Virus record (IMG/VR): IMGVR_UViG_3300010352_001202
Source of the DNA: a virus
Taxonomy: Duplodnaviria > Caudoviricetes
Direction: 5' to 3' (one strand)
Length of the DNA: 64,000 bases
Shown: positions 4,844-24,313 of the stretch, piece by piece
How positions within the stretch are numbered: the first letter of the stretch is position 1
How the letters are laid out: each line of letters starts with the position of its first letter
Made by a program: the position numbers and the translations under genes
Notes under the pieces: model-generated
The model's input: the letters and a program-made list of their open reading frames with translations, nothing else
Databases searched by the model: none
Told to the model about the DNA's origin: nothing

Positions 4844-4897
4844 AGAATGCGTTCAGCAATTAAAAATCAAACTTGTAATTTGAAAATAAGCATTCTG
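4844..4897 (+). ncRNA. CAGCAA-module RNA A (anticodon stem-loop cargo)
   Basis: AGAATGC/GCATTCT-G helix; GTTCAGCAA; TCAAA-CTTGTAA-TTTGA. Confidence 0.7.
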
Positions 4898-4909
4898 ATA
4901 TAAATATTT

Positions 4910-5038
4910 TGTTGTAGTTTTATCTGGCAGTAGCAATGGTCACTACTGGTAACGGTATATCGGGATAGGTGAAAGTCCTATAAGCGTAATCGATGCGCCC
5001 ACACAGCCCGGGGATATCGATAAACTGCAACACTTTTT
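4910..5038 (+). ncRNA. Unknown ~125-nt structured RNA
   Basis: TATAAATA at 4899-4906; terminal helix TGTTGTAGTTT/AAACTGCAACA; internal hairpins; 3' U-tract. Confidence 0.6.
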
Positions 5039-5049
5039 GAAAGCAAATT

Positions 5050-5325
5050 ATGTCCTGGCCATACGAACACGAACCTAAGGTTAGATGCATTGGTTTTCCC
5101 GAAACTTATCTACAGGCAATAATGAATGCAGTAGATAATCAGATGGTAGTTTGGGGTAAAAACGATTTATTCATGAGTATGGGAACTGCACAATTTGATT
5201 GGGCAGGTTGTACCTGGGAAATGACAGAGATGCAGGAATGTGTTACTGCAATTCAATTGGTAAAAGGTAAACCGATTGCAGAAGATTTGACAGCAGCAAT
5301 GCTAAAAGGTAAAATAGAGGCATAG
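5050..5325 (+). CDS. Hypothetical protein
   Basis: 91 aa ORF. Confidence 0.6.
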   Translation: MSWPYEHEPKVRCIGFPETYLQAIMNAVDNQMVVWGKNDLFMSMGTAQFDWAGCTWEMTEMQECVTAIQLVKGKPIAEDLTAAMLKGKIEA

Positions 5326-5335
5326 TAAGTATTTA

Positions 5336-5410
5336 GGGCGTTTAGCTCAGGGGTAGAGCGTTGCGTTTACACCGCAAATGTCCGGGGTTCGAAACCCTGA
5401 ACGCCCACCA
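5336..5410 (+). tRNA. tRNA-Val(TAC)
   Basis: GGGCGTT/AACGCCC; loop TTTACAC; ACCA. Confidence 0.95.
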
Positions 5411-5897
5411 GAAAACTTGGCGCGTTTCACAAGACCCGTTTGGGCTGTGTGACGGATAACAGTAAGGGAGTGCAAACCCTGAGCCAGTCCAGTTCGCATC
5501 AAGTCCGCAGATGTAAAATCCGGTCCGAGGATTGTTGTTCAACTCGTAATAAGAAACAACAAGGCGGGAGTCTTTGACATCACAGCGGTTTTACTATTCC
5601 GGAGTTAAAATTTAGTACGCGAGTTGAAGCGTTAGTGAGGTACGTCGAAAACACCAAGCGAAACACAAATTCCACACACTGGCATATTGTGTAAGATATG
5701 CCCCCGAGCTGCGTAGGGTTACGACGCAGTGGGTTCTTGTTGTGTTATCCCTAAAATACGGCGGCAGTATTCGGTTCTCTGCCTAACCCACCCGATCTGT
5801 TTGGAATACATTTACAGCCTAAATGTCAGTGAGTAGGAACACTTTCTATCCATGGATAGTAAAACATACCGGGGGCCGAACCGTTAGGGAGGGATAA
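5411..5897 (+). ncRNA. Large structured ncRNA candidate 1 (~490 nt)
   Basis: No credible + strand ORF; many local and long-range helices. Confidence 0.55.
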
Positions 5898-5936
5898 TTG
5901 GAAAATTCCCGAACAAGCTATAATTTAGGAACAGAA

Positions 5937-6188
5937 ATGAAATTTATCGGTAATGTGCTAGACAAGATAGCGAATGCTGTATGTGACTTCTTTGGAGTTG
6001 CAGACAAGGATTCGGGTGTTGTATTAGGGACATTTGTTATTTTTGTTGTTTTCATCTCTGTAGTTAGTGGTGTAGGATTGCTGTCGGCCTGGTTGTTGGG
6101 TATTCCGTGGTGGAGTACATGGGCAATAGCATTCTTGTATTACATGATTCTAGTCGTGAAAGCGAACAACGATATAAATAGTAGATAG
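5937..6188 (+). CDS. Small membrane protein
   Basis: Two hydrophobic segments; AGGA SD before ATG 5937. Confidence 0.65.
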   Translation: MKFIGNVLDKIANAVCDFFGVADKDSGVVLGTFVIFVVFISVVSGVGLLSAWLLGIPWWSTWAIAFLYYMILVVKANNDINSR

Positions 6189-6195
6189 AAGATTT

Positions 6196-6271
6196 CAGGG
6201 TTTAGTGTAGCCTGGTAACACGATTGCTTTGGGAGCAATTATCGAGAGTTCGAATCCCTCATCCCTGACCA
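6196..6271 (+). tRNA. tRNA-Pro(TGG)
   Basis: C1-G72; loop TTTGGGA; TTCGAAT; ACCA. Confidence 0.9.
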
Positions 6272-6373
6272 TAACATGATAAAATATAAATGCCAATGCG
6301 GCAAAGAAAACTGGGCAGATCAGAAGGTTTGCCCTATCTGTGGAAGAATTGTAAAGCCTCCACATAAACAGTC

Positions 6374-6862
6374 TTGAGGATGGTACACTAAACGTGCCTC
6401 AATACTCTGCCTGAGGATAATAGGCGGTGCACACCGGCCTTAGCGCGCGTGAACTGTTACATGTCATGAAATACATGTCAAGTCTCGCATTAGACTTGTA
6501 GGTTATGATAAAGATCCCATTTCGGCGCGCACGGTTTGGGTCATGCTTTGGGGGCATGTAAAAGTGACATAACTAAACTGGGTTTACCACCTATAGCACA
6601 TTTTCTAGGTAACGGGCAGCGAAGAAAGTGATATGCCGGTGGTATATGTAGTCCCTCAGTGATAAGGAGGCAAACTGCTGATATTCCTGTCTTACTATAT
6701 CACCTCCCGGATGTTGGGAAAATGCGCAAAGAACTATGGCATAGGAGAAAACCCATAGGGCGTGCGGCAAGGTTTGGCTAAGTATCTTGATATTGATTTA
6801 TCTTGTTGAAAACCGTTTGAGCCGTGCAGGTAACTTTATGACCGGTTAGCAAAACATCCACC
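6374..6862 (+). ncRNA. Large structured ncRNA candidate 2 (~490 nt)
   Basis: No ORF of 60 aa or more on either strand; nested helices. Confidence 0.55.
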
Positions 6863-6870
6863 TAATTTTT

Positions 6871-7578
6871 ATGAAAATCCACACTAAGAAATTTGTAGGC
6901 ACACCGTTTATTGTTACGGCCGAAAATATCCCAAATGAGCCAGGTGCGTGGGATTCGGCTAAAATCGCCATTTGGCGGGATGAAGTTTTGATCGGTGAAT
7001 ATATTCGTAACTATGCCAGTTACGCCATAATGACATTTTATCCGTTTCAAGTCGGTAATGAATGGTATGCACTCTACAGTGCTGATTATACCACTACTCG
7101 TGTAATGAAACTTCACGAAGATAGGATCGAAGATTGGTGTGGCGAACATCCTGCAATGGGAGGGTTTTGCCCTGTTGAATATTATATTCCGCGCTATAAT
7201 AAATCCATTGACTCGTATAGCGTAAATGAAGAAAAACATGAGTTTGATGTATATCAGATGGACAACGATTATACGAGCATGGAAGCGTTTGTTGCCGATT
7301 GGGATAAGCCTAAATTTGTAGAAACACAGTTCTGTAATTTTGCTTTTGTATGCGGCTGTATCTGGGGCGATGACTCAACCTGGAAATTACGGTATATCGA
7401 GCTTGCAGGCATTCCTGAAAAAGAATTACTTATTACAGAAAAATTTGGTTACTGGGAATTACCCACTCAAATGACACTAAGACAGTGCATTAATATGTCT
7501 AATTGGGAACCCGACCATAATTGGGTTGAACTTACTAGAATGGAGCATTTTAATCTCAAAACCGGCGAACGGTGCTGA
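6871..7578 (+). CDS. Hypothetical protein
   Basis: 235 aa ORF. Confidence 0.7.
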   Translation: MKIHTKKFVGTPFIVTAENIPNEPGAWDSAKIAIWRDEVLIGEYIRNYASYAIMTFYPFQVGNEWYALYSADYTTTRVMKLHEDRIEDWCGEHPAMGGFCPVEYYIPRYNKSIDSYSVNEEKHEFDVYQMDNDYTSMEAFVADWDKPKFVETQFCNFAFVCGCIWGDDSTWKLRYIELAGIPEKELLITEKFGYWELPTQMTLRQCINMSNWEPDHNWVELTRMEHFNLKTGERC

Positions 7579-7588
7579 TAAATAAAGT

Positions 7589-8527
7589 ATGGACTTATCG
7601 ACAATAGCAAAAGATACAAAAATAATACTTACAAGCGGTTGTTCGTATTCTGTTATGTTTGCGCATTTGAATGCACACTTTAAGAATGTTCAGCTTATTA
7701 ACCTTGGTGAAGGCGGCAGATCTAATAAATGGATAGCACAAAGCCTTATTTACGCCCTGGAGCAACTCAAAGATCATCCAAGAGAAAATTTATTTGTAAT
7801 GCCTATGTTTACTAGTGTTGATAGGCAAGATTTGTTTGTAGACAAGCATTCTAATAAATTTCATAAAAAATTAGATTTTTTGGATTTTGCTGATCCTGTA
7901 TTTTTTACAGAAGGATTTAGTTACAGACAATATAAATGGTATAATCATATTATCGAGGGTGACAGCAGGTACGACCCCGACAGAATGACTGGATTATTGA
8001 GCATGACAAATCTCGATAAAAACTCAGAATCTGAATATGTGTTTGAAGAATTTGCCGGAAAATACTATACATATTTTCATAATAATTTTGCAGCATTTGA
8101 TTATACATTACAGAATATAATTGCACTTCAGAATTATTGTAAGTTATCGAACACAAATTACTTGATGTTGTCCTGGCAAGATATTTTTCATGACACTTCG
8201 TTTGATAAGTTTTTCATAGTAGGGCAGACATACGACGGTAATCAGTTTAACCACTGCGATTATTCTACTCTAATGAAGCGAATCGATTGTTATCCTGAGT
8301 TAAGGTATTTGTATAACCAGATTGACTTTTCAAATTGGTGGTTTAATGATACAGAGAGATGCAGCACTGGTGGCCTGGCAGACTGGTGTATAGAAAACGG
8401 GCCGGGATTATTCGGGTCAGAAAAAGATAACTGTCATCCGACCAAACCGGGTTATAAAGAATTTGCAAGGAAAGTTCTTGCACCACTTGTGACACAAAAA
8501 ACTGGTTGGTCGACTATACAGAGATAA
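7589..8527 (+). CDS. SGNH/GDSL-like hypothetical protein
   Basis: SGCSYS, INLGEGGRSN, terminal DNCHPT. Confidence 0.65.
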   Translation: MDLSTIAKDTKIILTSGCSYSVMFAHLNAHFKNVQLINLGEGGRSNKWIAQSLIYALEQLKDHPRENLFVMPMFTSVDRQDLFVDKHSNKFHKKLDFLDFADPVFFTEGFSYRQYKWYNHIIEGDSRYDPDRMTGLLSMTNLDKNSESEYVFEEFAGKYYTYFHNNFAAFDYTLQNIIALQNYCKLSNTNYLMLSWQDIFHDTSFDKFFIVGQTYDGNQFNHCDYSTLMKRIDCYPELRYLYNQIDFSNWWFNDTERCSTGGLADWCIENGPGLFGSEKDNCHPTKPGYKEFARKVLAPLVTQKTGWSTIQR

Positions 8528-8550
8528 ATAAGTACACTGTTATAAACAAC

Positions 8551-8573
8551 GGGGGTGTAGCTCAATAAGAGCA
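8551..8573 (+). pseudogene. 5' remnant of an ancestral tRNA-Ala
   Basis: GGGGGTG-TA-GCTC-AATAA-GAGC-A: acceptor strand plus D arm only. Confidence 0.7.
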
Positions 8574-8596
8574 CAGAGTAATTGCATAAATATGTG

Positions 8597-9046
8597 ATGA
8601 ATAATGGCAAGTATAACACCGAGAATTATAAAAGAAAACAATCTGAAAAGTTAGATAGATTGTATGGTCCGGTTTTGCAACATAAGAAGATTTGTAAATG
8701 TTGTGGATCAGAATTTATCTTTGAAGGAAGACTAGATACAAAAGCCTACGAAAAGGCACAATTTTGTAAAAGAAGTTGTGCTAATAATAGGCAGGAATGG
8801 TGGGATGATAATGCAACACATTATCGAACTATTGCTTTTAGGCATTGGGACGAAAAATGTGCATTGTGCGGATTTGATAAGGTAGTAGCGGTACATCACA
8901 TTGATGAGAGTAAAGAAAATAATTCTTATCGAAACCTAATACCTTTATGCCCAAACCATCATGAAATGTTACATAGTAAGTGGAGACATGAAGTACAACC
9001 GCTTATAGATAGAGCGATAATTGAAAAATTTGGGCCTGTAGTATAA
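8597..9046 (+). mobile_element. HNH endonuclease
   Basis: CALCG...VHHIDE...NLIPLCPNHHEMLH; N-terminal Zn motif. Confidence 0.9.
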
Positions 9047-9105
9047 TGGGATTACGGTAGCTTTGCAAGCTATTTATAGGAGTTCGATTCTCCTCAGGTC
9101 CACCA
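9032..9105 (+). tRNA. tRNA-Ala(TGC)
   Basis: G3-U70; loop TTTGCAA; ACCA. Confidence 0.93.
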
Positions 9106-9116
9106 AAACACATAAC

Positions 9117-9308
9117 ATGATTAGAAAACTAAATGAACTTAGTGGCGACCAATGGTCCTTTATTTGGTCCGTTACTGGTGGAAATGAAGGATGTGATCAT
9201 GCGTATGAAGAATTTAACGCAGTAGAAGAAGACGATTATACCGCAGTCTATAATTGTGTACATTGTAACGCCAAGTTGGATTATGATGTAAGTGATATAA
9301 GTGATTAA
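9117..9308 (+). CDS. Small hypothetical protein
   Basis: CDH...CVHC; start placed after the tRNA. Confidence 0.55.
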   Translation: MIRKLNELSGDQWSFIWSVTGGNEGCDHAYEEFNAVEEDDYTAVYNCVHCNAKLDYDVSDISD

Positions 9309-9316
9309 GGACACGC

Positions 9317-9697
9317 ATGTCTATTAGACTTAGTAGAGATTATTCAGATTATCTGCCTTTACCGACAGCAGAAAACTTAGATATACTCCGGAAACAATGC
9401 AAATTGTTAACCTGCGAACAACTGAATAGCTTGGTATTTTTCCTGTCAGACGAACATAAACGATACACAACAACTATAATTCCAGAAGAAGAAATGCCAT
9501 TACAACAAGCCGAATGGTATGCGATACTCGAATATCAAAAGGTTGTTCAGCAAGAAGTTAAATATAGGAATTTTGTTACCAATTGTGGTAAGGATATAAG
9601 TGAAAAAATGTACGATAATATCATTGGTACCCCAAACAGGGTATTAGATGCTATCTTACAGCAGACAAGGCAATCTTCGCAGAAGATTGGTTTTTGA
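9317..9697 (+). CDS. Hypothetical protein
   Basis: 126 aa; AAGGA SD. Confidence 0.65.
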   Translation: MSIRLSRDYSDYLPLPTAENLDILRKQCKLLTCEQLNSLVFFLSDEHKRYTTTIIPEEEMPLQQAEWYAILEYQKVVQQEVKYRNFVTNCGKDISEKMYDNIIGTPNRVLDAILQQTRQSSQKIGF

Positions 9698-9705
9698 TAG
9701 ATTAT

Positions 9706-9784
9706 TCCGCACGGGCCGGCGTGGTGTAAGGCAAATGACTGTTAATCATTCTCAAGCTAGGTTCAACTCCTAGGTGCGGAGCCA
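9706..9784 (+). tRNA. tRNA-Asn(GTT)
   Basis: TCCGCAC/GTGCGGA; loop CTGTTAA; G73; CCA. Confidence 0.9.
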
Positions 9785-9786
9785 TA

Positions 9787-10329
9787 ATGTCAAAAAGTAG
9801 TGAAGCTGTAAAAAGATGGAGAGCTAATACCAAAGACAGAATGGTAAAGGCAATGGGTAGTAAATGTCAGTGTTGTGGTTATAATACATGTAATAATTCT
9901 TTGGCATTTCATCATATTGATCCAAAAAGAAAAGATTTAACATTTGCAGATACAAGGGCAAATCCTCAAAAATGGAATCTAATTGTTGAGGAGTTAAGAA
10001 AGTGTATTCTGGTATGCCATAATTGCCATGCTGAAATACATGCAGGTATTAGGACTATACCGGAAATTTATTTTATATTTGATGAATCTTTCGCAGATTA
10101 TAAGATAGAAACAGAATATAATTTTTGTATCTGTGGTAAAGAAAAACCACAGACGTTTAAATTTTGTAGTCATAAATGTGCTGCCACAAATCGTCGTAAG
10201 GTCGATTGGAATAATATTGATTTAATTGAATTATTAAAAAATCATAGCATTACCGAATTAGAGGATAAACTAGGAATCTCGAATGCTGCTATATACAAAA
10301 GACGAGATAAGATACTAAATAAGAAATGA
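9787..10329 (+). mobile_element. HNH endonuclease with C-terminal HTH
   Basis: CQCCGY...FHHIDP...KCILVCHNCHAEIH. Confidence 0.9.
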
Positions 10330-10670
10330 AACTAAAATACATTTTTGACGAAGAACAGGTATTCGAAAGCGAAACCGATAATGCACCGCGTGTTGGCGAG
10401 ATGGTCTTTTTTGAAGAAATCTTCTTTGTTGAAAATGTAGTTTGGTATCCAAAGGATGGAGAGGTTCGCATTTTTCTTTCGGACAGAGCAATGGCAAAAC
10501 CGAAGGTTGCGGAATCTAAGGCAAAGGTAGTAAACTTACATTTAGTTGGACAAGCACAGCAGACAGCCGACAAGGCGCTTAAAGAAGCATCCGAACTAAA
10601 AAGACAAGTATTCTCAATTAGACAATATCTAAAAAATCAGCCAAAGGCACCGACAAAAAATGACACCTGA
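10326..10670 (+). CDS. Hypothetical protein
   Basis: 114 aa coupled ORF. Confidence 0.6.
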   Translation: MKLKYIFDEEQVFESETDNAPRVGEMVFFEEIFFVENVVWYPKDGEVRIFLSDRAMAKPKVAESKAKVVNLHLVGQAQQTADKALKEASELKRQVFSIRQYLKNQPKAPTKNDT

Positions 10671-10866
10671 TAAAAACTATCGTATGGCCCCGCAGATCAA
10701 GACAATGATCACAATGATGAAGGGCACTTCGGAACAAAAGAGTGCATGGAAACGTGCAATGATCGATGCGCAACTGTGCGAAGAGTCTGCTCGTCGTGCT
10801 GCATTGAAGTCAAAGGACAATGGAGATAATAAGGGCAAGGGCCGCGGAGCCGTTGCACCTGAGTAA
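10660..10866 (+). CDS. Small hypothetical protein
   Basis: 68 aa ORF. Confidence 0.6.
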   Translation: MTPDKNYRMAPQIKTMITMMKGTSEQKSAWKRAMIDAQLCEESARRAALKSKDNGDNKGKGRGAVAPE

Positions 10867-11076
10867 GTTCAGCCTGGTATGTTCGGTACAATCATAGGAT
10901 TTGGGTCATTTACTATATACCCACCGAGCCTCGGATAATATTAAATTAATTTCATTATCCTTACCAGCATTTTTACTAAGGAATATGTCGCGGATAGATA
11001 TATCTTAAAATAGAATATATAACCCGGACCCTATTATAATATTATATAAATAATGTTATATGTCTATTCCGATTTT

Positions 11077-11150: not shown

Positions 11151-11170
11151 AAGATAAATAAATGATCAGA

Positions 11171-11578: not shown

Positions 11579-11630
11579 ATTAAAATGCCCTAAAGGGCGC
11601 GGCCCGAACATGCGTGTAACTGTTCTTATT

Positions 11631-12709: not shown

Positions 12710-12715
12710 GGTGGC

Positions 12716-14527: not shown

Positions 14528-14782
14528 ATGGTGAAGATTGACTTCACCAGTTTCGGAGATTTCTCCACATGCCCAGCATGGTGGAGAAATCTTGTGACTG
14601 AAGCAACAAAAGATTTGCCGCAGCAGGACCCGGAGTGGAGTAATGCCATTATCGCTGCATTGCAAAAATACGGTGCTGTAATGGATGACATTGATTCGTG
14701 GCAATTCAACTATGTTATGTTTAGGGATGATGCGGATTTTTTGGCATGTATATTAAGATGGGATTATGAAGATGGCCGCTAA
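14528..14782 (+). CDS. Hypothetical protein
   Basis: 84 aa; AAGGAG SD. Confidence 0.6.
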   Translation: MVKIDFTSFGDFSTCPAWWRNLVTEATKDLPQQDPEWSNAIIAALQKYGAVMDDIDSWQFNYVMFRDDADFLACILRWDYEDGR

Positions 14783-15164
14783 ACAAGTTATTGTAATGAA
14801 GAAGTTCCCCAAGGATCGCAATATGCGTACCGGGAAATATGTCGCTCAAGGAGCACATGCTTCTGTAGGGGCTATTTTTAGTCTCGGGACTGTGGTGAAT
14901 GATAATCTGGTTATTCCACTTAATGATCCGTTTGTGAAAGAATGGATTACAGGTAGGTTTGCCAAGATAGCACTATATGTCGAAACCGACCAGGAATTGG
15001 TTGATCTCTACAAACAAGCACTTGGCGCGGGCTTGCCTGCCGCACTGATTAAGGATGCAGGGCTGACTGAATTCAATGGCGTGCCTACGCTAACTGCGGT
15101 TGGCATTGGTCCCGGTAATGCAGAAGTTATTGATAAGGTAACCGGTCACTTACCTCTATTTTGA
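14766..15164 (+). CDS. pth2: Peptidyl-tRNA hydrolase, Pth2 family
   Basis: GKYVAQGAHAS, IKDAGLTE, TAVGIGP...IDKVTGHLPL. Confidence 0.92.
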   Translation: MKMAAKQVIVMKKFPKDRNMRTGKYVAQGAHASVGAIFSLGTVVNDNLVIPLNDPFVKEWITGRFAKIALYVETDQELVDLYKQALGAGLPAALIKDAGLTEFNGVPTLTAVGIGPGNAEVIDKVTGHLPLF

Positions 15165-16455: not shown

Positions 16456-17394
16456 ATGAAACTCAAACTTATTTCCGCAGTGGCGCTCTCCCTGTTTGCA
16501 TTGACTGCTGCTCAAGCTCAACAAGTGAAGGTGGCAACCGGCGGTCCCAAGGGAACCTACCATGCGCTGTTTGCCAACATTGCCGAAAAGTGTGGCGACC
16601 AAATGGCAATGATTGAAGTGCCGTCAAGCGGTTCACTGGAAAACTTGGACAAGCTGGCCGGCAAGGAAGTCGGTGCTGCATTCATGCAAACTGATGCACT
16701 GTTTGCTTCTGCACAAGGACGCGATCTGGGCAATATCAAGACACTGGTTGCCTTCAACAAGGAATCGGTCCACGTGGTTGCTCCTGTTGCATCCGGACTA
16801 AAGACGTCGGGCAACATGATTGGCATGGGTAAGCAAGACATTGTGTTTACCAATGTCGAAGACTTGGCAGGCTACAAGGTTGCTGCTGCTGGCGGCTCGG
16901 TGATTACTGCCCAAGTTCTGCAAGGTCAGGGCCAGGTGAAGTGGACAATTGTTCCTGTTGACTCAAACGATGCTGCGATTGCTGCTATCAAGTCCGGTGC
17001 TGTTCAGGCGGCTGTGATGGTTGGTGGACAACCGCTAGGAAATGTCAAGGCGCTTGGTCCCGACATGAAGCTACTTAGTTTTAGGTCCGGTACCGTGGAT
17101 CTGTTGAAGACAGTTTACGTCGCTGATAAGTTGTCGTATCCGAAGCTCAGCACTTCTGCTGTGAGCACCATTGCTACCGAAGCATTGCTGGTTACCAGAA
17201 CTGTGAATACGCCGGATCGCGTTACCGCGCTGGCCAACTTCCGAAACTGTGTCATCAAGCATGTTCCCGAATGGCAAGATGCTGACGGTGCTCACCCGGC
17301 TTGGTCGCAAGTGGATGTTGCTAACAAGGGCAAGTGGCCATTCTACGAGTTGCCGATGCCCGCAACCGTGACAGTCACCGGCAAGAAGAAGTAA
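16456..17394 (+). CDS. TAXI-family TRAP solute-binding protein
   Basis: Signal peptide; VATGGPKGTY, SSGSLENL, FMQTD. Confidence 0.85.
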   Translation: MKLKLISAVALSLFALTAAQAQQVKVATGGPKGTYHALFANIAEKCGDQMAMIEVPSSGSLENLDKLAGKEVGAAFMQTDALFASAQGRDLGNIKTLVAFNKESVHVVAPVASGLKTSGNMIGMGKQDIVFTNVEDLAGYKVAAAGGSVITAQVLQGQGQVKWTIVPVDSNDAAIAAIKSGAVQAAVMVGGQPLGNVKALGPDMKLLSFRSGTVDLLKTVYVADKLSYPKLSTSAVSTIATEALLVTRTVNTPDRVTALANFRNCVIKHVPEWQDADGAHPAWSQVDVANKGKWPFYELPMPATVTVTGKKK

Positions 17395-17411
17395 GAGATA
17401 AATAAGAATCT

Positions 17412-17588
17412 AGGATAGGTACAGCAAACAAAATAATAAAGCAACTGGCAGCTTATAAACTGCCTATTATTGGAAGAAACCAAGTTTGTGTCGGACAAGA
17501 TTCCGAATCGAGCGTAAGCGATTTACGATAGGGAGGTGGGTTTGATAGGCCCTCCAGAATAATAATCAAACCGTTACCAACTATCCTG
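17412..17588 (+). ncRNA. CAGCAA-module RNA B
   Basis: AGGATAG/CTATCCT-G; GTACAGCAA; GATAAATA promoter at 17397 and downstream terminator. Confidence 0.75.
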
Positions 17589-17592
17589 TAAT

Positions 17593-17624
17593 GACACCGC
17601 TTATAATAAGCGGTGTCGCCTTTT
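17593..17624 (+). terminator. Intrinsic terminator-like hairpin
   Basis: GACACCGCTTA-TAA-TAAGCGGTGTC then GCCTTTT. Confidence 0.65.
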
Positions 17625-17635
17625 ATAATACAGGC

Positions 17636-18076
17636 ATGGGCCGACTAGTCGAACTAAAAGACATTGATCTTACACCGCATTGGTATTTTTCCGACACATG
17701 GTATAGTACCGACGGTCGCAGATATGTGTATAAGTGGCCAAGCCCGGATTTCCCGCACCAAGTGTCAATTCATGCAGATGATATTGATCGTGACCATGCA
17801 CTAAAAATCAAAATTAGGCGGTGGATTGAAAGAAATCTTTCCGAGACTGTTATATTTTCCGAAGTACAAAAGAACTATCGAATATATTACGGTGAAGAAA
17901 GAGATTGGGATCACAGCTACGAAAGAAGAAATGAGTGGTATGTGTTCCACTTTGAGGATGAACATAGTGCCACAATATTCCGATTAGCATTTTCGGATTT
18001 AGTGAAAGAGATAACAGAGTTACACCCAGACAAGGAAGACGAATATGAGAAAACTAGCTACCATAAGAACTATTAG
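17636..18076 (+). CDS. Hypothetical protein
   Basis: ORF; start placed after the terminator. Confidence 0.65.
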   Translation: MGRLVELKDIDLTPHWYFSDTWYSTDGRRYVYKWPSPDFPHQVSIHADDIDRDHALKIKIRRWIERNLSETVIFSEVQKNYRIYYGEERDWDHSYERRNEWYVFHFEDEHSATIFRLAFSDLVKEITELHPDKEDEYEKTSYHKNY

Positions 18077-18098
18077 CGATAATTGATGGTTGGCAGAT
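18045..18098 (+). pseudogene. 5' remnant of the RNA ligase gene
   Basis: AAGGA SD, then MRKLATIRTISDN*, and AIIDGWQ in another frame; intact ligase reads MRKLATIRQILDL...AVVDGWT. Confidence 0.8.
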
Positions 18099-18117
18099 AT
18101 ATTTGGTAAATAAGCAT

Positions 18118-18684
18118 ATGAAATACTATACCATTTATAAGACAACCTGCCAACCAACCGGTAAAATATATATTGGTCAACATACAACTTCTAAGATTGA
18201 TGACAGATATATAGGATCTGGTAAAATTATAAAAAATGCTATAAAGAAATATGGAAGACATAACTTTACAAAAGATATTTTAGAAGTCTGTGATACATTA
18301 GAAATACAAAATATTAGAGAAGAATATTGGATACAACTGTTTGATTCGCGTAATCCAGAAATAGGATATAATATAGATACCGGCGGCTATTTAGGTCCGC
18401 GAAGTGATCTGGCAAGAAAAAATATTTCTAATGCAAATAAGTCCGCTGACAAAAGAAATAAAATATCAGTTACACTAATGAATCATGTTGTAAAAGATAT
18501 CACTAGAGATAAAATAAGAGAATCTATTTTACCTACCATGACTCCGGAAAGAAAACAATTCCAGCGGAATAATATGTTAGGTAGGAAAAAAATGAGATGC
18601 ATTGAGACTGGAAAATGTTCTCATATACGAGCAGATGATATACAACACTACATAAACAACGGATGGATATTATGCGTAAATTAG
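18118..18684 (+). mobile_element. GIY-YIG (Seg-like) homing endonuclease
   Basis: TIYKTT...KIYIGQH...YIGSG...E...GYNI. Confidence 0.9.
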
Positions 18685-19760
18685 CCACTATTAGACAAAT
18701 CTTAGATTTGAGACCCATACCCGGCGCCGACCAGATAGAGTTGGCAGTTGTAGATGGGTGGACTGTGGTAGTTAGAGTCGGAGAATTCAAACGCGGCGAT
18801 CCCTGCGTGTATTTTGAGATCGATAGCTTCCTGCCATTGCGTCCAGAGTTTGAACACATTCGTGCCCGTTGCTTCAAGAGAATGGGTGAACAGGAAGGGC
18901 TGCGTATCAAAACCATCCGTTTGCGTGGCCAGCTTAGCCAAGGCATGGCCTTACCGCTGACATCTTTTCCGGAAATTATTACCGAGTGGGACAGGCTGTG
19001 CAATGAAGGGCTGAAAGCAGCAAACACAACTATCCATGACGTTGACTTTTCCGAACTATTGGGTGTACAGAAGTACGAACCTCCTGTTCCTACACAGTTG
19101 GCTGGTAATGTCTCTGGAAATTTCCCCGGATTTATTCCAAAGACAGATCAAGAGCGTTGCCAAAACTATGGAAGAGAAATCTTTGTCGACAACGAAGGTG
19201 CTCGTTATGAGATTACTGTCAAGTTGGATGGTACATCTTTTACTGGGTATCGCAAAGACGAGGAAGACGGTGTCTGTGGCCGTAACTGGAAGCTGAAAGT
19301 TGATGACGACAATGCTACAAACTCCTTGGTTCGCATGTATGTAGACAGCGGATTACAAGCAGCATTAGCCAAATTAGGCATGAACTACGCTGTACAAGGT
19401 GAGCTCATGGGCCCTGGCATACAGAAGAATCGTGAGGGCTTTAAGATCACGAAACTGTTTGTGTTCGATATTTACGATATCGATAATGGATGCTATCTTG
19501 CTCCACATGCAAGGCACGAGGTGTTGTATCAACTGTGGGATTTGGGATTGGACCGTGATATGGTTGACCATGTTCCGGTGATCGCAATGGAAATGCCATT
19601 GGAAGAACTTGGCATCGAAAGTGTAGATCAACTCCTGGCTTATGCAGAAGGTCCGAGTATCGCTCACGCCATACGTGAAGGACTTGTGTTCAAACGAGTG
19701 GACGGTGGATTTAGCTTCAAGGCCATTAGCAACAAGTTCTTGCTGAAGGAAGAGGACTAA
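18672..19760 (+). CDS. RNA ligase, DRB0094/Rnl2-like family with N-terminal OB-type domain
   Basis: Motif I KLDGTS, QGELMG, FVFDI, EGLVFK, FKAISNKFL. Confidence 0.9.
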   Translation: MRKLATIRQILDLRPIPGADQIELAVVDGWTVVVRVGEFKRGDPCVYFEIDSFLPLRPEFEHIRARCFKRMGEQEGLRIKTIRLRGQLSQGMALPLTSFPEIITEWDRLCNEGLKAANTTIHDVDFSELLGVQKYEPPVPTQLAGNVSGNFPGFIPKTDQERCQNYGREIFVDNEGARYEITVKLDGTSFTGYRKDEEDGVCGRNWKLKVDDDNATNSLVRMYVDSGLQAALAKLGMNYAVQGELMGPGIQKNREGFKITKLFVFDIYDIDNGCYLAPHARHEVLYQLWDLGLDRDMVDHVPVIAMEMPLEELGIESVDQLLAYAEGPSIAHAIREGLVFKRVDGGFSFKAISNKFLLKEED

Positions 19761-19791
19761 TTTGTGATAAATAGCGTATCAAGGATACGCT

Positions 19792-20565
19792 ATGAGATTG
19801 CAAGAACTTTTCCTCGTTGAAACCACAGAAGAAGACAGGGCTATTATATCCCTGTCTACCGTCGTTTATGCATACCTAAAGAAGTATGCAGGTAAGAAGC
19901 TAAAAGATGGCGAAGTAATAAATGTAGGAACAGTGGGTCAACTGTTTGATACACCAATCAATATTTTAGATCCAGTTGAGATTCAACTATGGAATCATAA
20001 CGACATTCTAAAAGCATTCCCACAGCAGGCATCTGATGCAGATCAAGAAGATCCGGAAGAGGATGATCGCAATATTCTAGGTTTCTGGGATCCACAATCG
20101 GAAATTGTAGCACTGAATATTGATTACCTTGAATCAAATAGTCTAAAGGGTGCAGTAACACACGAATTGCGCCATGCGTTGGATGATTATAAGTCCGAGT
20201 TCAGGGCAGGTTCAAGCACAAGATACGACACACCGAAGAAAAAGGAACACAGAAAGGATCTATCAAATGATCCGTATGCGTCTGAGCTTGAGAAGAAGAA
20301 GCCTTACCACGCCAAGCCGGCCGAGATCAATGCCCGATTTGCAGAGGTACTGCATGGTGTGACTTTCCAGATAAAGCATTCTATGAAGTATCCACCAGAC
20401 CAAATCCGACCGAGAGTGATGAAGTTATTCATGAAGCTTCTAGACATGAAGCACATAGCTCACTTATTTCCAGAGAAAACACAATCTAAAGATTACAAGC
20501 GTTTGGTAAAACGCGGTATGGATTTTATAGATAAAGAGCTAGCACACCTCCAATCTCAAAAATGA
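19792..20565 (+). CDS. Putative virion protein with HExxH motif
   Basis: THELRH; late promoter at 19766; N-terminus MRLQELFLVE. Confidence 0.6.
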   Translation: MRLQELFLVETTEEDRAIISLSTVVYAYLKKYAGKKLKDGEVINVGTVGQLFDTPINILDPVEIQLWNHNDILKAFPQQASDADQEDPEEDDRNILGFWDPQSEIVALNIDYLESNSLKGAVTHELRHALDDYKSEFRAGSSTRYDTPKKKEHRKDLSNDPYASELEKKKPYHAKPAEINARFAEVLHGVTFQIKHSMKYPPDQIRPRVMKLFMKLLDMKHIAHLFPEKTQSKDYKRLVKRGMDFIDKELAHLQSQK

Positions 20566-20599
20566 TGTCTTTTTAACCTATTTCTGCAATGGTTATAGG

Positions 20600-20628
20600 T
20601 TGACAATATAAATAAAGCACACTATAAT
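20600..20628 (+). promoter_or_regulatory. Consensus sigma70 promoter driving RNA C
   Basis: TTGACA-17-TATAAT. Confidence 0.9.
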
Positions 20629-20643
20629 AGTGGCTACTTACAA

Positions 20644-20850
20644 AGAGTGGATACAGCAAACAAACCGACGCTGAAAGGCGACTATGGTGTTGATGTCGAT
20701 CTTACATGTGGAGGGTTTACCCGATGAAGCATAGTAAGGCCATCGCTCAACAAACTTCCTAGGACGAAGCAAAAGGTTCGAACTCGGGGTAAGGCCCGAA
20801 AGCAAACTAGTAATCCTTGTGGTGAAACATTTGTCCCTTACACCACTCTG
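20644..20850 (+). ncRNA. CAGCAA-module RNA C
   Basis: AGAGTGG/CCACTCT-G; ATACAGCAA; multi-hairpin interior. Confidence 0.75.
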
Positions 20851-20876
20851 TTTTCAATATCTAAATACAGACATAC

Positions 20877-21260
20877 ATGACAGTAAGTATTTCCTATTCC
20901 CTCGGAGCATTACACGAAGCTGCCAGATTTATTTGGGAGAATAATGAAAGTGTTCTAAACTGGCCTTGTTCCCCAACTTCGGCGTTTGATGTAATGACGC
21001 AAATTAGGGATATGATGGTCAAGGGAGCATTGGAAAATGCTGAGTTCTTAAAGAAAGAAAAGAACAAAACTTTATCAGCCGATGACGATTGGATGACATT
21101 CAATGGTACCGGCGGATATTATGTCCTGTATGAGCTCTTAAGTGAAGAAGATGATGAAGAAGTGCGCATCGGTATCGACATTTTGGTTGATCCCTCGGTT
21201 AGTCATCCTAACCCCCGGTACGTAACAGAAGTCGTTGACAACACAGAAGAGACTGTATAA
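20877..21260 (+). CDS. Hypothetical protein
   Basis: 127 aa ORF. Confidence 0.65.
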   Translation: MTVSISYSLGALHEAARFIWENNESVLNWPCSPTSAFDVMTQIRDMMVKGALENAEFLKKEKNKTLSADDDWMTFNGTGGYYVLYELLSEEDDEEVRIGIDILVDPSVSHPNPRYVTEVVDNTEETV

Positions 21261-21263
21261 ACT
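21235..21263 (+). promoter_or_regulatory. Sigma70-type promoter driving RNA D
   Basis: TTGACA-17-TAAACT. Confidence 0.7.
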
Positions 21264-21280
21264 AGAGACTTACTTGCTAA

Positions 21281-21390
21281 AGATTAGGTACAGCAAAAAA
21301 TAAAATTAGCATATTAGGGCACACTCGAAAGGGTGTATAACTAAGAACCTTTCTGAAGGGGAAAGCAAAAACTCGTCAAAACCTAATCTG
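21281..21390 (+). ncRNA. CAGCAA-module RNA D
   Basis: AGATTAGGT/ACCTAATCT-G; GTACAGCAA; ACACTC-GAAA-GGGTGT hairpin. Confidence 0.75.
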
Positions 21391-21400
21391 ATCTAATTTT

Positions 21401-22024
21401 ATGTATGGACATTGGATTACAAAGATAGAATTTAATCCGGATGATTATATCGGGTTTGTTTATCTTGTGATTAATGTTCTTACAGATCAAAAATATATCG
21501 GCAAGAAAAATTTCAGAGTTAATACACGAACCACAGAAAGGTGGGAAGAGTATACTTCGAGTTCGAAGTATCTAACTAAAGATATTTTAAAATTAGGAAA
21601 AGAAAATTTTCGATTTGAGATTTTATTTCTGTGTAAAACAAAAGAAGAATTAGATAATTTAGAAATAGAAGAACAAAAAAGAAGAAATATACTTAGATCC
21701 TTATTGCCTAACGGCACACGAGAATATTATAATAGGTATATACATAAGGTCGGTCTTAGCACAAATGGGGCTAAATTTAGCGAAGATGTAAAAGAAAAAA
21801 TGCGTAAAACACATACTGGTGTTCCGCATAATTCTAAAGATAAGAAAGTATATCAGTTTAAAGATACAAACACTGGTATTGTCCAAAATTGGACAAGAAA
21901 AGAATTCCAAAATATAGTGGGTGCTGATCCCTGTAAATTAGTTATAGGTAAGGCAAAATCTGTAAGAAAATGGATTTGTTTAGATCCGATTGATGGGATA
22001 AGGAATTATCCTAAGAGAAAGTAA
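21401..22024 (+). mobile_element. GIY-YIG endonuclease
   Basis: GFVYLVIN...KYIGKK...WEEYTSSS...YYN. Confidence 0.85.
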
Positions 22025-22030
22025 TTTTAA

Positions 22031-22150
22031 AGATTCCGTTCCGCAACTAAAATTAATAAACCGAGGTATGTGGGTTCGAGCCCCACTCTCATTGGCAACA
22101 GTGAGATAGTCGAATTGGTATAGACATTGGTCAAATAAAAAGCGAATCTG
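22031..22150 (+). ncRNA. CAGCAA-module RNA E: circularly permuted tRNA mimic (YrlA-like Y RNA)
   Basis: AGATTC/GAATCT-G; GTTCCGCAA; then T arm, GCAA-capped acceptor stem and D arm in permuted order. Confidence 0.85.
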
Positions 22151-22152
22151 AT

Positions 22153-22497
22153 ATGAAAAATACATACACATTTTTAGTCCTAATTTCTGCAATGTGTTCA
22201 TCATTTGCCGGTCCACCTAAAAATAATGTCGAGCTTGAAGATAAATGTTATGCATTGCTAAAACCTCATATTGAAGGTGCGACAATAAAAGGTGTTAGAT
22301 GGAATAGATACGGCGATGAAGTATCGTTTTCTCTTTCTAAGAATGTAGGATATAATCTGACAAGTTTTGCAGAATGTTACATCGATAACGGGGATGTAAA
22401 ACGGCGCTTTGAATCAAAGGCCGAAGGAAAGATCCGTTACGCCGAGGAACAACGAAAGCGTGCCGAAGAAGAAAAGAAATTAAGAAGATTTAAATAA
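22153..22497 (+). CDS. Secreted hypothetical protein
   Basis: N-terminal signal peptide. Confidence 0.6.
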   Translation: MKNTYTFLVLISAMCSSFAGPPKNNVELEDKCYALLKPHIEGATIKGVRWNRYGDEVSFSLSKNVGYNLTSFAECYIDNGDVKRRFESKAEGKIRYAEEQRKRAEEEKKLRRFK

Positions 22498-22499
22498 TT

Positions 22500-22691
22500 A
22501 TGGGATTTAGATTTCGTAAAAGTATAAAGGTTGGTGGAATTAAGTTAAATCTTGGTAAGACCGGATTAACCAGTGTTTCGGTAAAACCGACTAAAAATAC
22601 AAATATCTCAGCAGGTAAGACCGGAGTCACCGGATCTGTATCTTGGTTAGGCACCGGACTTAGTTATATTTTCAAGATATTCAAATGGTAA
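22500..22691 (+). CDS. DUF4236-like protein
   Basis: MGFRFRKSIKVGGIKLNLGKTG...GTGLSY. Confidence 0.8.
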   Translation: MGFRFRKSIKVGGIKLNLGKTGLTSVSVKPTKNTNISAGKTGVTGSVSWLGTGLSYIFKIFKW

Positions 22692-22876
22692 AAATGAAAG
22701 CATTAGTTCTTTTGGCAGCTATATTCTTGGCAACCTCAGCAAGTGCTACAGGTGGTAGATTAAATAGCAAGGGATGTCATAATAGTAAGAAGGTCGGATA
22801 TCATTGCCATAGAAGTCAAGATAAACCTGCACCTGTTAAGAAAGAAAAAGTTATTCCAAAGAAGAATAAACAATAA
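22685..22876 (+). CDS. Secreted YHYH-like small protein
   Basis: Signal peptide; GGRLNSKGCHN...GYHCH. Confidence 0.75.
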   Translation: MVKMKALVLLAAIFLATSASATGGRLNSKGCHNSKKVGYHCHRSQDKPAPVKKEKVIPKKNKQ

Positions 22877-22909
22877 AGAATTTTGACAGCAACTTAAAAT
22901 AAAATTCTG
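22877..22909 (+). promoter_or_regulatory. Cargo-less CAGCAA module F in the DUF2828 gene leader
   Basis: AGAATTTT-GACAGCAACTTAAAAT-AAAATTCT-G, immediately before the GGAG SD. Confidence 0.75.
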
Positions 22910-22924
22910 AACGGAGAAACAAAA

Positions 22925-24313
22925 ATGACAACACTATTTGAAGCAGTAAACGCAAACGCAACAACAGCAAACGGGGCCGTGACAAACGCATCGTCTCTAA
23001 ATAAAAATGTGGACCTTTTCTTCCTTGCTGGTGCAAGCCGCGGTAAGGATATCACTTCTACCTTCGCCGGAGCCTTCGTTGAAGACTCCGAAGTTGCAAC
23101 TCGTATCCTTCAGTGGGCACGTGATGCACGCGGTGGAGCAGGTGAGCGTGAAACTTTCCGTAAGTTGTTCGGCTATCTGTTGAAGAACGAAATCGCAATC
23201 GCTTCTCGCGTGCTTGTAAAGGCACCTGAGCTTGGCCGTTGGGACGACGTTTTGATCGCCTTCGGTACACCTATCGAGCGTGAAGCTCTGCGTATGATCG
23301 CCTTTGCTTTGAACGAAGTAAAGGATGGTCTGTGCGCAAAGTGGATGCCGCGTCAGGGTGCGGAAGCGAACAAGATTCGCTCGTACATGAAGTTGACTCC
23401 GAAGCAATATCGTAAGCTCTTGGTTGGCTTGTCCAACACTGTTGAGCAGAAGATGTGTGCCCAGGATTGGACTGGAATCGTGTATCCGCATGTTCCGTCG
23501 GTTGCTGCTGGTCGTTACCAGAAGGCTTTCTTGAAGCACGATCCTTCGGGATATGCGAAGTACAAGGAAAAGCTGGTTTCGGGCGAAGCGAAGATCAACG
23601 CATCGGTTGCTTACCCGTACGACGTGATTCGTTCACTTCGTAACGGCGATAAGGTTGTTGCTAACGCACAATGGGATGCATTGCCAAACTATCTTGAAGG
23701 TTCGGACGAAAACATCCTCCCGGTTGTTGACGTTTCGGGTTCTATGGATTTCCAAGTGTCTGGTAGCGTAACTGCTATGGACGTTGCGATCTCCTTGGGA
23801 TTGTACACTTCGGAACGTATGGGTGGTGTGTTCAAGGACCAGTTCGTGACATTCTCGAGCCAGCCGGAAATGCTGCACTTGAAGGGCAACCTTCAACAGC
23901 GTTATGACGCAATGGCTCGTTCCAACTGGGCAATGAGCACAGATATCCAGGCTGTGTTCAAGTTGATCTTGACTTCGGCAACGAAGCATAAGGTTGCTCA
24001 GAAGGAAATGCCGACAAAGATCCTGATCTTGTCGGACATGGAATTCAACACTTGCGTTACTGGCGGAACAAGCGTTAGCGCAATGAACATGATTGAGAAG
24101 GAATATGCTGCCGCAGGGTACAAGGTTCCGCAGGTTGTGTTCTGGAACCTGAAGGGTCGTGCTGGAAACAGCCCGGTTACCTACAACCAGTCCGGAACTG
24201 CACTTGTGTCGGGCTTCTCTCCGAGCATCGTTAAGTCGGTACTTGGTGGTGAAGAAATGACACCGATCAGCATCATGCTGAAGACTGTAATGGTCCAGAG
24301 ATACGACTTCTAA
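22925..24313 (+). CDS. DUF2828-family helical + vWA protein (TROVE/Ro60-like architecture)
   Basis: RDARGGAGER, GRWDD, KWMP; vWA VVDVSGSM, LILSDMEF, VFWN. Confidence 0.85.
   Translation: MTTLFEAVNANATTANGAVTNASSLNKNVDLFFLAGASRGKDITSTFAGAFVEDSEVATRILQWARDARGGAGERETFRKLFGYLLKNEIAIASRVLVKAPELGRWDDVLIAFGTPIEREALRMIAFALNEVKDGLCAKWMPRQGAEANKIRSYMKLTPKQYRKLLVGLSNTVEQKMCAQDWTGIVYPHVPSVAAGRYQKAFLKHDPSGYAKYKEKLVSGEAKINASVAYPYDVIRSLRNGDKVVANAQWDALPNYLEGSDENILPVVDVSGSMDFQVSGSVTAMDVAISLGLYTSERMGGVFKDQFVTFSSQPEMLHLKGNLQQRYDAMARSNWAMSTDIQAVFKLILTSATKHKVAQKEMPTKILILSDMEFNTCVTGGTSVSAMNMIEKEYAAAGYKVPQVVFWNLKGRAGNSPVTYNQSGTALVSGFSPSIVKSVLGGEEMTPISIMLKTVMVQRYDF

Follow-up and report, generated by a model that had tools for sequence, protein, structure and literature searches.

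A 64,000-nucleotide (nt) stretch of DNA from a virus of the Caudoviricetes (Duplodnaviria; IMG/VR record IMGVR_UViG_3300010352_001202), hereafter termed the window, contains six intergenic elements that share one putative RNA docking module, and at positions 22925–24313 it encodes a protein with DUF2828 and DUF7788 domains. The module consists of a 7-base-pair (bp) terminal helix of free sequence, a 3-nt junction, the hexamer CAGCAA, an interchangeable inner part (the cargo), the 3′ arm of the helix and an unpaired 3′ G. Its helix covaries, it recurs beside DUF2828 genes on the strand of the gene, and some of its cargoes are tRNA-like. The protein is predicted to fold like Ro60. Taken together, these features probably belong to a divergent ribonucleoprotein (RNP) of the Ro/Y RNA type, which would use a new docking motif and feed back on itself through a copy of the module in the leader of the protein gene. 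Conservation of Ro60 and Y RNAs extends from bacteria to humans; what they do is only partly understood.

The Docking Module in the Window

The window was searched on both strands with a regular expression made of an arm beginning with AG, 1–5 nt, C[AC]GCAA, up to 350 nt and the reverse-complement arm. This search returns exactly six loci (A–F), every one on the plus strand and followed by a 3′ G, compared to one weak match on the minus strand and a mean of 1.5 loci (both strands summed; maximum 10) in 200 mononucleotide shuffles. An earlier reading of the window by a model (the original prediction) had listed these six loci with a common layout, covarying helices and a fixed core, terminal AG/CT and 3′ G, and this description is correct at all six places.

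All six copies place the hexamer 10 nt in from the 5′ helix end. Copy A (4844–4897) pairs AGAATGC (4844–4850) with GCATTCT (4890–4896) and has the junction GTT, CAGCAA at 4854–4859 and its 3′ G at 4897. Copy B (17412–17588) has the helix AGGATAG/CTATCCT, CAGCAA at 17422–17427 and a 3′ G at 17588, and it encloses a structured cargo of about 150 nt. The largest cargo is that of copy C (20644–20850), in which AGAGTGG pairs with CCACTCT, the hexamer lies at 20654–20659 and the 3′ G at 20850. Copy D (21281–21390) has the helix AGATTAG(GT)/(AC)CTAATCT, CAGCAA at 21291–21296 and a 3′ G at 21390. Copy E (22031–22150; 3′ G at 22150) forms only six pairs, AGATTC/GAATCT, with C/C at the seventh position, and its core is CCGCAA (22041–22046), compared to CAGCAA in the other five. 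Copy F (22877–22909), which lies in the leader of the DUF2828 gene, has no cargo; its helix is AGAATTT(T)/(A)AAATTCT and its hexamer is at 22887–22892. All six are on the plus strand, and the helix can extend inward in copies D and F. Total lengths run from 33 nt (F) to 207 nt (C). The gene at 22925–24313 has copies B–F in the 5.5 kb upstream of it and copy A at a distance of 18 kb on the same side.

A wider core, C[ACG]GC[AG][AC], yields no additional plus-strand copy in the window. By itself, CAGCAA or CCGCAA occurs 81 times in the window compared to 66.9 expected, which is no enrichment; the signal is the hexamer in combination with the helix. Copies B and D have stable folds, with minimum free energy (MFE) z-scores of −2.4 and −3.4. 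A megablast search of positions 20000–25000 against deposited phages gives no match and so reveals no close named relative.

Recurrence of the Module Beside DUF2828 Genes

The original prediction linked the module to the DUF2828 gene and proposed that their co-occurrence be examined across genomes. The two do occur together in distant phage lineages, on the strand of the gene and mostly within 1 kb of it, and six tRNA-rich phages, none of which has the gene, are devoid of the module.

The general architecture used for this comparison, N7-N3-CAGCAA...N7′-G, leaves the helix sequence free and allows at most one G-U pair. It was applied to the window and to 88 DUF2828 loci, namely 80 loci on viral contigs whose protein relatives are 47–85% identical and eight named phages found by tblastn. 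In these 1.49 Mb, the gene strand carries 180 matches and the opposite strand 11, compared to about 6 on each strand of shuffled sequence. Within 1 kb of the gene (167 kb of sequence) lie 122 of the gene-strand matches; 56 lie in the remaining 1.2 Mb and 2 inside the gene. The strict rule places a copy within 1 kb of the gene in 62 of the 89 sources; a relaxed rule, under which the background is higher, at about 50 per strand, places one within 1.5 kb in 75 of the 89. An independent set of 72 loci from genomes and metagenome-assembled genomes (MAGs), which covers many bacterial phyla and some archaeal bins, is positive by the strict motif at 47 loci, with 94 matches on the gene strand compared to 7 on the other.

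The module is present in nearly all of the lineages represented by the 88 loci, where helices of differing sequence keep one geometry and one hexamer, and several well-known phages are among the carriers. Listeria phage A511 has three copies directly upstream of gp57, Campylobacter phage CP81 has two upstream of its gene, and Staphylococcus phage SEP9 has three in tandem downstream. The Felix O1-like phage humlepung contains four to five copies among the tRNA genes downstream of its DUF2828 gene, and KVP40 contains two in its tRNA region and one more found by covariance model (CM). Bacillus phage PBC2 has seven copies. Enterococcus phage phiSHEF16 has three, of which the strict rule finds two and inspection by eye the third (core CAGCGA), and Mycobacterium phage Gardann also has three, one with the core CAGTAA.

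The counts rest on regular expressions with shuffle and strand controls because the CM (R1), built from 34 short copies, detects short-cargo copies only. In the window it finds copy A (43.9 bits, E = 6.3e-8), which is a training sequence, and copy F (25.5 bits, E = 0.0022), which is not, and it misses copies B, C, D and E. In the whole genomes of A511, humlepung, SEP9, PBC2 and KVP40, all CM matches with E < 0.01 fall in the tRNA/DUF2828 region; these are mostly training sequences, and that of KVP40 is not.

The six tRNA-rich phages are T5, T4, SPO1, phiKZ, S-PM2 and K (about 1.05 Mb). They have no DUF2828 homologue and give no CM match below E = 0.07. The first 50 kb of T5 contain three regular-expression matches, which have AT-only stems in or beside coding DNA and lie outside the tRNA region. 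Moreover, at 45 of 114 loci that bear the motif, the DNA examined contains no tRNA on the same strand. Proximity to tRNA is thus not required, and the module is not simply a feature of tRNA clusters.

Helix Covariation and the Search from the RNA Side

The ends of the helix differ by lineage and CAGCAA is kept. They are AG..CT followed by G in this phage, AAG..CTT followed by G in phages of Staphylococcus, Bacillus and Enterococcus, and TGG..CCA followed by G in a mycobacteriophage. In one metagenomic lineage, GGAAT-N4-CAGCAA...ATTCC-GA is nested in a second, outer helix. The flanks of the elements are A/U-rich (TAA/AG, TTTT/AG and G/TT, with the slash at the boundary). All six pairs that were counted have changed on both sides, in rows preselected for pairing. 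The percentage of paired rows in this alignment (A2) is circular, since the rows were chosen for pairing, and only the variety of pair types is used.

The association can also be approached from the RNA. The pattern AGGAT-N5-CAGCAA-N25-45-ATCCTGT, which specifies the outer five pairs of one common helix type, is found in at least 146 stretches of the viral collection. The counts that follow are among the matches listed. Two inner pairs that the pattern does not specify are present in 83 of 87 distinct matches, compared to about 14% estimated by chance. This means that nearly all of the matches are real elements, and that the pairing is not an artefact of selection. The protein is encoded within 6 kb at 26 of the 79 loci obtained from these matches, on the strand of the motif every time; among 47 further whole records, 18 have its gene at a greater distance on the contig. 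Of the records with an estimated completeness of at least 90% (n = 4), three have the gene; the match of the fourth is without the inner pairs and resembles a chance hit.

The DUF2828/DUF7788 Protein

The gene at 22925–24313 (plus strand) encodes 462 amino acid residues. Pfam identifies DUF2828 (PF11443, E = 1.1e-25) and DUF7788 (PF25043, E = 6.5e-51) in the product, together with a weak match to the von Willebrand factor A (vWA) domain, and PHROGs assigns it to phrog_850, “RNA-binding protein” (E = 3e-154). An AlphaFold2 model made from a 31-sequence alignment has a predicted local distance difference test score of 80.9 and a predicted template modelling (TM) score of 0.78. It contains a helical repeat part at about residues 27–252 and an alpha/beta vWA domain, with DVSGSM, at about 264–455.

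The original prediction regarded this protein as a counterpart of Ro60 and called for a structural comparison with Ro60 and its bacterial relative Rsr. The predicted fold does match them over its full length. With Foldseek, 12 solved chains are found at E < 1e-4, all of which are Ro60, Rsr or the Ro60 of a Thermus phage and all of which match over the whole length (E from 6.9e-10 to 2e-5, TM 0.36–0.58); the chains ranked after them match the vWA part only. With VIA-align, Ro60, Rsr and the Thermus phage (phiLo) Ro60 make up the ten best solved matches (Z 14.0–18.9 over 376–402 residues, root-mean-square deviation 4.0–5.5), compared to a Z of at most 10.8 for chains with the vWA domain only.

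DVSGSM (D269, S271, S273), T339 and D371 are invariant in all 31 sequences of the alignment, and so are several Arg/Trp-rich motifs of the helical part. From their spacing, T339 and D371 may be the residues that complete a site of the metal ion-dependent adhesion site type with DxSxS. The Pfam model of the Ro60 vWA domain (PF25045) has a weak match in 4 of the 31 members (best E = 0.017). In a profile search of PDB sequences, the sole family matched is phiLo Ro60 (E = 3.8e-4), in the vWA part. The DUF2828 protein belongs to a large family: 8705 representative clusters match at E ≤ 1e-3, of which 3949 reach E ≤ 1e-30, and tblastn finds the family in 711 of 50,697 deposited phage genomes.

Records of mycobacteriophages name relatives of the protein “Ro-like RNA binding protein”, and the HHpred match given for protein CKA15_055 of Listeria phage CKA15 is Rsr (accessible text of PMC12282133). 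The Ro-likeness of the family is therefore already known. CKA15_055 is probably the homologue of A511 gp57, judging by size and position. The same text reports that CKA15_055 was detected in purified virions with 57% coverage. Homologues in the jumbo phages Erwinia phage pEa_SNUABM_12 and Salmonella phage 7t3 are annotated “(putative) structural protein”. These labels agree with the detection in virions, which is a hint that the protein may be packaged. On the basis of the model, the DUF2828 protein can be described as predicted Ro60-like helical repeats joined to a vWA domain, and as the putative partner of the module RNAs.

Cargoes and Their Likeness to tRNA

The cargo of copy A is one hairpin, TCAAA-CTTGTAA-TTTGA (4867–4883), with 5 bp and a 7-nt loop of the form C-U-NNN-A-A; judged by its sequence, it looks like an anticodon stem-loop (“UGU”). 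The cargo of copy C is kept in 9 relatives as an RNA of 210–270 nt with several covarying hairpins and no Rfam family, and that of copy D contains two stable hairpins. In copy E, the cargo comprises a T-arm, GTGGG-TTCGAGC-CCCAC (22070–22086), a hairpin at about 22087–22106 and a D-arm-like stretch at about 22107–22125. Copy E and five relatives can be aligned through the docking helix, T-arm, hairpin and D-arm, with compensatory changes in the T-arm and the hairpin, and two of these relatives have a textbook D-arm sequence. As read from the alignment, the copy E type is a YrlA-like permuted tRNA, with its elements in the same order as in YrlA. This tRNA-like module of T-arm, hairpin and D-arm also occurs in elements of Enterococcus, Bacillus and Mycobacterium phages; among the window copies, A, B, C, D and F do not have it.

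At the gathering score, Rfam gives 16 tRNA matches and nothing else in the whole window. At E ≤ 10 in positions 17350–17650 and 20500–23000, it gives Six3os1_3 and MCS4 only, both at chance level, and neither Y_RNA nor YrlA; the original prediction likewise did not recognise the motif as the canonical Ro-binding motif of Y RNAs. The YrlA model (RF02553, cut-off 69) does find three stretches in the tRNA/DUF2828 region of phiSHEF16, at 47.4, 34.3 and 29.4 bits, of which the two best lie inside module elements. In these alignments the tRNA-like core is aligned and the outer stems of the model fall on unrelated sequence with non-standard pairs, so that the docking module appears as a different solution. 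The match to an existing Rfam family that, according to the original prediction, would remove the novelty is thus not seen at threshold in the window, and below threshold it extends only to the tRNA-like part of a relative.

Tailored patterns give a wider view of the cargoes. Among 242 distinct elements from 161 sources, 39 contain an anticodon-loop-like hairpin, compared to 3.3 expected from shuffled cargo, and 30 contain a T-arm hairpin, compared to 0.4 expected. A whole tRNA call by ARAGORN is enclosed by 5 of 269 elements. One element of PBC2 encloses a “tRNA-Ile”, and in Gardann an annotated “tRNA-Asn” lies inside the module with a permuted, YrlA-like layout.

“tRNAs” called by ARAGORN or annotated in records lie wholly inside docking-helix elements at Gardann L084 7459–7529 and PBC2 L087 4265–4339, and also at loci L069, L070, L104 and L121. 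Part of the phage tRNA and “pseudo-tRNA” annotation may be RNP cargo rather than tRNAs.

The Leader Copy, Transcription Signals and Expression

The DUF2828 gene has its GGAGA Shine-Dalgarno sequence 3 nt and its ATG 15 nt downstream of the end of copy F. Cargo-less copies of 33–39 nt that end about 15 nt before the start codon are found in the window and at 13 of the 24 closest loci. More distant lineages have a short cargo-bearing copy at the leader position, and loci L002 and L004 have an E-type element instead. A leader copy that adjoins the Shine-Dalgarno sequence would be expected of a module-binding protein that is a translational repressor of its own gene, and copy F is a candidate operator for such predicted autoregulation.

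A sigma-70-type promoter, TTGACA-17-TATAAT (20600–20628, plus strand; 12 of 12 consensus positions), lies 15 nt upstream of copy C. Directly 3′ of copy B there is a strong intrinsic-terminator-like hairpin of 12 pairs with a T run (17592–17618, plus strand), and a further terminator-like hairpin (24330–24354, plus strand) lies 3′ of the DUF2828 gene. Open reading frames (ORFs) on the same strand start soon after the copies: at 17591 after the end of copy B at 17588, at 20877 after C (20850), at 21401 after D (21390), at 22153 after E (22150) and at 22925 after F (22909).

Expression data are available for phage CKA15. According to the accessible text of PMC12282133, transcription in that genome is highest in three non-coding regions, all less than 2 kb upstream of CKA15_055, and the authors offer speculation on Y RNAs.

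A Proposed Ro-Type Particle and Its Alternatives

In the proposed particle, the six loci would be genes or processed segments for Y-RNA-like small RNAs, and their protein partner would be the product of 22925–24313, a Ro60-like ring of helical repeats and a vWA domain. The docking site would be the 7-bp sequence-free helix with the 3 nt, the single-stranded CAGCAA and the unpaired 3′ G, and the protein would read the geometry of the helix and the invariant single-stranded bases. The inner part would be displayed; according to the copy, it resembles an anticodon stem-loop, forms a YrlA-like permuted tRNA or a larger structured RNA, or is absent. Copy F, placed before the ribosome-binding site, would let the protein repress its own translation. 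We infer binding by the protein, processing into discrete RNAs, autoregulation and a downstream function.

By analogy with Ro60/Rsr, the bound RNAs would be stabilised, and they could tether the ring to other enzymes or gate the access of substrates. The particle could, for example, tether a nuclease, as in the complexes of Rsr, Y RNA and polynucleotide phosphorylase (PNPase) and of phiLo Ro60, Yrl and PNPase described in the accessible parts of PMC4201824 and PMC12135203. The tRNA-like cargoes suggest tRNAs or tRNA-acting enzymes as targets. As for context, an RNA ligase gene (18663–19760, plus strand; PF09414 and PHA02142 OB domain) lies between copies B and C, and a gene for PTH2 (peptidyl-tRNA hydrolase) lies at 14766–15164. 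These two genes, the tRNA cluster and the cargoes made of tRNA parts lean the interpretation towards tRNA surveillance, tRNA repair or the decoying of defences that target tRNA. The RNAs may be adaptors or decoys, the role that the original prediction gave them. A more specific version is offered tentatively: in phages of many lineages, a universal dock would load the Ro-like ring, itself perhaps delivered with the virion, with interchangeable mimics of tRNA parts (anticodon stem-loops, T-arms, permuted tRNAs and whole tRNAs), and the particles would act as decoys or sensors for host anticodon nucleases and further defences aimed at tRNA, or as platforms that bring cut tRNAs to the neighbouring RNA ligase.

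Several observations weigh against a Ro-type particle. On the side of the protein, the Pfam TROVE model matches none of the 31 family members at E ≤ 1. On the side of the RNA, the canonical Ro-binding features of Y RNAs are absent from the module, which has no bulged helix or CGAA-type motif; the MFE z-scores of copies A, C, E and F (−1.0 to −1.6) are unremarkable; and 177 of the 242 cargoes have neither tRNA-like hairpin under strict patterns, so that tRNA mimicry applies to a minority of cargoes. The association is also incomplete in both directions. Even by the relaxed rule, 14 of the 89 DUF2828 loci have no copy within 1.5 kb; five of these are cut about 400 nt or less downstream of the gene, and others have variant cores (CGGCAA, CAGCAC). 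Among the matches listed from the RNA side, 29 of the 47 whole records lack the gene; 28 of these 29 are fragments of 3–62% estimated completeness, so these negatives say little. The six negative-control phages are few and were hand-picked by the analyst. Every copy in the window lies just upstream of an ORF, which a purely cis-regulatory reading fits equally well. Finally, the main text on CKA15 places only one abundant RNA, at 26,236–26,727 (CKA15_059–061), by far the most abundant phage transcript, which its authors left unidentified (PMC12282133). The corresponding stretch of A511 (locus L081 4432–4983; about 26196–26747 of the record) matches Rfam ROOL at 87.5 bits (E = 2e-16; gathering score 99.1). 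By its position relative to A511, the placed RNA is probably ROOL, and it lends no support to the CAGCAA RNAs.

Among the alternatives, the one that survives best, though an unlikely one, is that the module is a processing or stability signal. A host factor, such as an RNase or an enzyme of tRNA maturation, or another phage protein would read it, so that small RNAs are cut from long tRNA-cluster transcripts; DUF2828 would be linked to it only through a shared mobile cassette of the tRNA region and would bind something else, for example damaged tRNAs. A tRNA acceptor stem is as long as the 7-bp helix with its unpaired 3′ base, the A/U-rich flanks would suit such a signal, copies are interleaved with tRNA genes in humlepung and PBC2, and five elements enclose whole tRNA calls; in addition, the gene lies beside the tRNA cluster in A511, KVP40, humlepung, CP81, PBC2 and phiSHEF16. 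However, the hosts span Proteobacteria, Firmicutes, Actinobacteria and archaeal MAGs, so that a host reader would have to be universal, and the six tRNA-rich phages, some of which share these hosts, are without the module. Loci without a same-strand tRNA (45 of 114) and cargo-less leader copies, which hold nothing to process out, also speak against such a signal. The module hugs DUF2828 instead (122 of 180 within 1 kb), DUF2828 being the only partner tracked in all sets.

Still less probable is a purely cis-acting role, in which the modules are mainly translational operators of a small regulon, under the Ro-like protein or another factor, and the cargo is leader structure, with neither free small RNAs nor trans-acting RNPs being made. 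The short distances between the ends of copies B–F and the following same-strand ORFs, and the widespread leader copies before DUF2828 genes, are what such operators would show, but in a packed phage genome any intergenic element closely precedes the next ORF. Elsewhere the copies form ORF-free tandem arrays, with three members downstream of the gene in SEP9, five at L069/L070 and three upstream of the gene in A511, or lie between tRNA genes, as in humlepung. The cargoes include covarying YrlA-like tRNA mimics and whole tRNAs, a terminator directly follows copy B, and copy C has its own consensus promoter.

Chance is hardly credible as the source of the six matches, which would then be inverted repeats that happen to enclose a common hexamer and share no function: the hexamer alone is indeed unenriched (81 compared to 66.9) and AT-rich chance matches do exist, as in the first 50 kb of T5, but against this stand the 180 gene-strand matches, compared to 11 on the opposite strand and about 6 on each strand of shuffled DNA, the 94 compared to 7 of the independent set, the unspecified inner pairs in 83 of 87 of the pattern matches listed, and the fixed offsets of 10 nt to the hexamer and of the 3′ G.

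Other candidates were rejected. Inverted repeats of mobile elements do not fit because the arms differ between copies, and a transposase would need like arms. RNase III sites do not fit helices of only 6–9 bp, and promoters or DNA operators do not fit an arm spacing of 14 to 190 nt or the strict strand bias.

Significance

If a Ro/Y RNA-type particle is indeed formed, the DUF2828 proteins would be a sister family of Ro60 with its own simple, recognisable RNA docking motif. The motif provides a rule for finding many new phage small RNAs. It occurs in well-studied phages (the Felix O1 group on E. coli K-12, KVP40 and the A511/P100 group), which makes the function of Y-type RNAs testable in fast genetic systems. 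The fixed dock with its free cargo is a possible scaffold for the display of RNA on a protein ring. Should the tRNA-mimic reading be true, Y-type RNAs would gain a defined role in the conflict between virus and host.

Other Features of the Window and Its Relatives

The window has a G+C content of 41% and 18 tRNA genes, and nearly all of its genes are on the plus strand. It also encodes a T4-type terminase, a tail sheath protein, gp32-like and UvsX/RecA-like proteins and many homing endonucleases. Genes related to RNA or nucleotide conflict include cREC_REC, a cyclic-phosphate-processing receiver domain (38627–39001), PTH2 (14766–15164), a NADAR domain (29535–30017) and a radical SAM protein (2277–3659). 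At 26744–26837, ARAGORN calls a tRNA-Ile(TAT) of 94 nt, which is unusually long for its class, and Rfam tRNA matches 26744–26834; the extra length could be a long variable arm or an insertion.

In PBC2 (L087, NC_071040.1), the tRNA features of the record are on the strand opposite to the 19 tRNAs found by ARAGORN, at the same coordinates, and the deposited strand looks inverted. In phiSHEF16, a full-length transfer-messenger RNA (130.4 bits) lies in the tRNA region at L088 2256–2606 and is missing from the feature table shown. In this phage, each module copy is also preceded by a second repeated element, a GTTCCAACCTAACAGGTAGCCGGAAC-type hairpin.

Comparison with Known Systems

In the literature and in Rfam 15, no prior account of the CAGCAA module was found; the search covered few subscription journals. 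The species 1 and 2 RNAs of phage T4 are stable RNAs of a phage tRNA cluster. Unlike the present system, T4 has neither a DUF2828 gene nor the module.

Autogenous repression through a ligand mimic in the leader of a protein's own gene is established for ribosomal proteins, T4 gp32 and RegA. As in those cases, a cargo-less copy of the putative binding site adjoins the Shine-Dalgarno sequence of the DUF2828 gene. Unlike in that scheme, some relatives (L002, L004) have a cargo-bearing, E-type element at the leader.

The stable RNAs of phage T5 (RNA I, III, IV, 1, 2, 2H, 3 and X; NC_005859) resemble the module RNAs in that they are small, sometimes tRNA-like and encoded among phage tRNA genes. T5 has no DUF2828 homologue and no module on either strand of its tRNA region (L161 28000–41600), and its best CM match (E = 0.07) lies outside that region. 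The annotated stable RNAs of T5 are a set separate from the CAGCAA modules.

The closest parallels are with Ro60 or Rsr and their Y RNAs, including YrlA (RF02553; Chen et al. 2014, accessible text of PMC4201824). Both systems have a protein of helical repeats and a vWA domain, here by predicted fold match, and small RNAs encoded beside its gene on the same strand. In both, the ends of the RNA are paired in a terminal helix, which is the putative protein site, and a second module varies; the copy E type also shares the permuted tRNA-like order of T-arm, hairpin and D-arm with YrlA. Unlike Ro60/Rsr, the protein belongs to the DUF2828/DUF7788 family and lacks the Pfam TROVE match. The dock of 7 bp, 3 nt, single-stranded CAGCAA and 3′ G contrasts with the consensus stems of YrlA and the CGAA-type motif described in the accessible text of these papers. 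A single genome contains as many as six or seven of the RNAs, and the cargo ranges from none through anticodon-loop look-alikes to whole tRNAs, with no Rfam match at threshold.

Among phage systems, the nearest is Thermus phage phiLo, in which, as is predicted here, a Ro60-type ring is phage-encoded and its partner RNAs, Yrl1 and Yrl2, lie just upstream of the gene (PDB 9KOP, 9L5Y; accessible text of PMC12135203). The phiLo Ro60 is also the best or joint-best structural match of the DUF2828 model (Foldseek E = 6.9e-10; Z 18.8). In contrast to the present system, its Ro60 is annotated TROVE and, according to the same text, its RNAs were picked by a stem-bulge-stem shape and the CGAA motif; the DUF2828 system differs from it in both the sequence family of the protein and the motif of the RNA.

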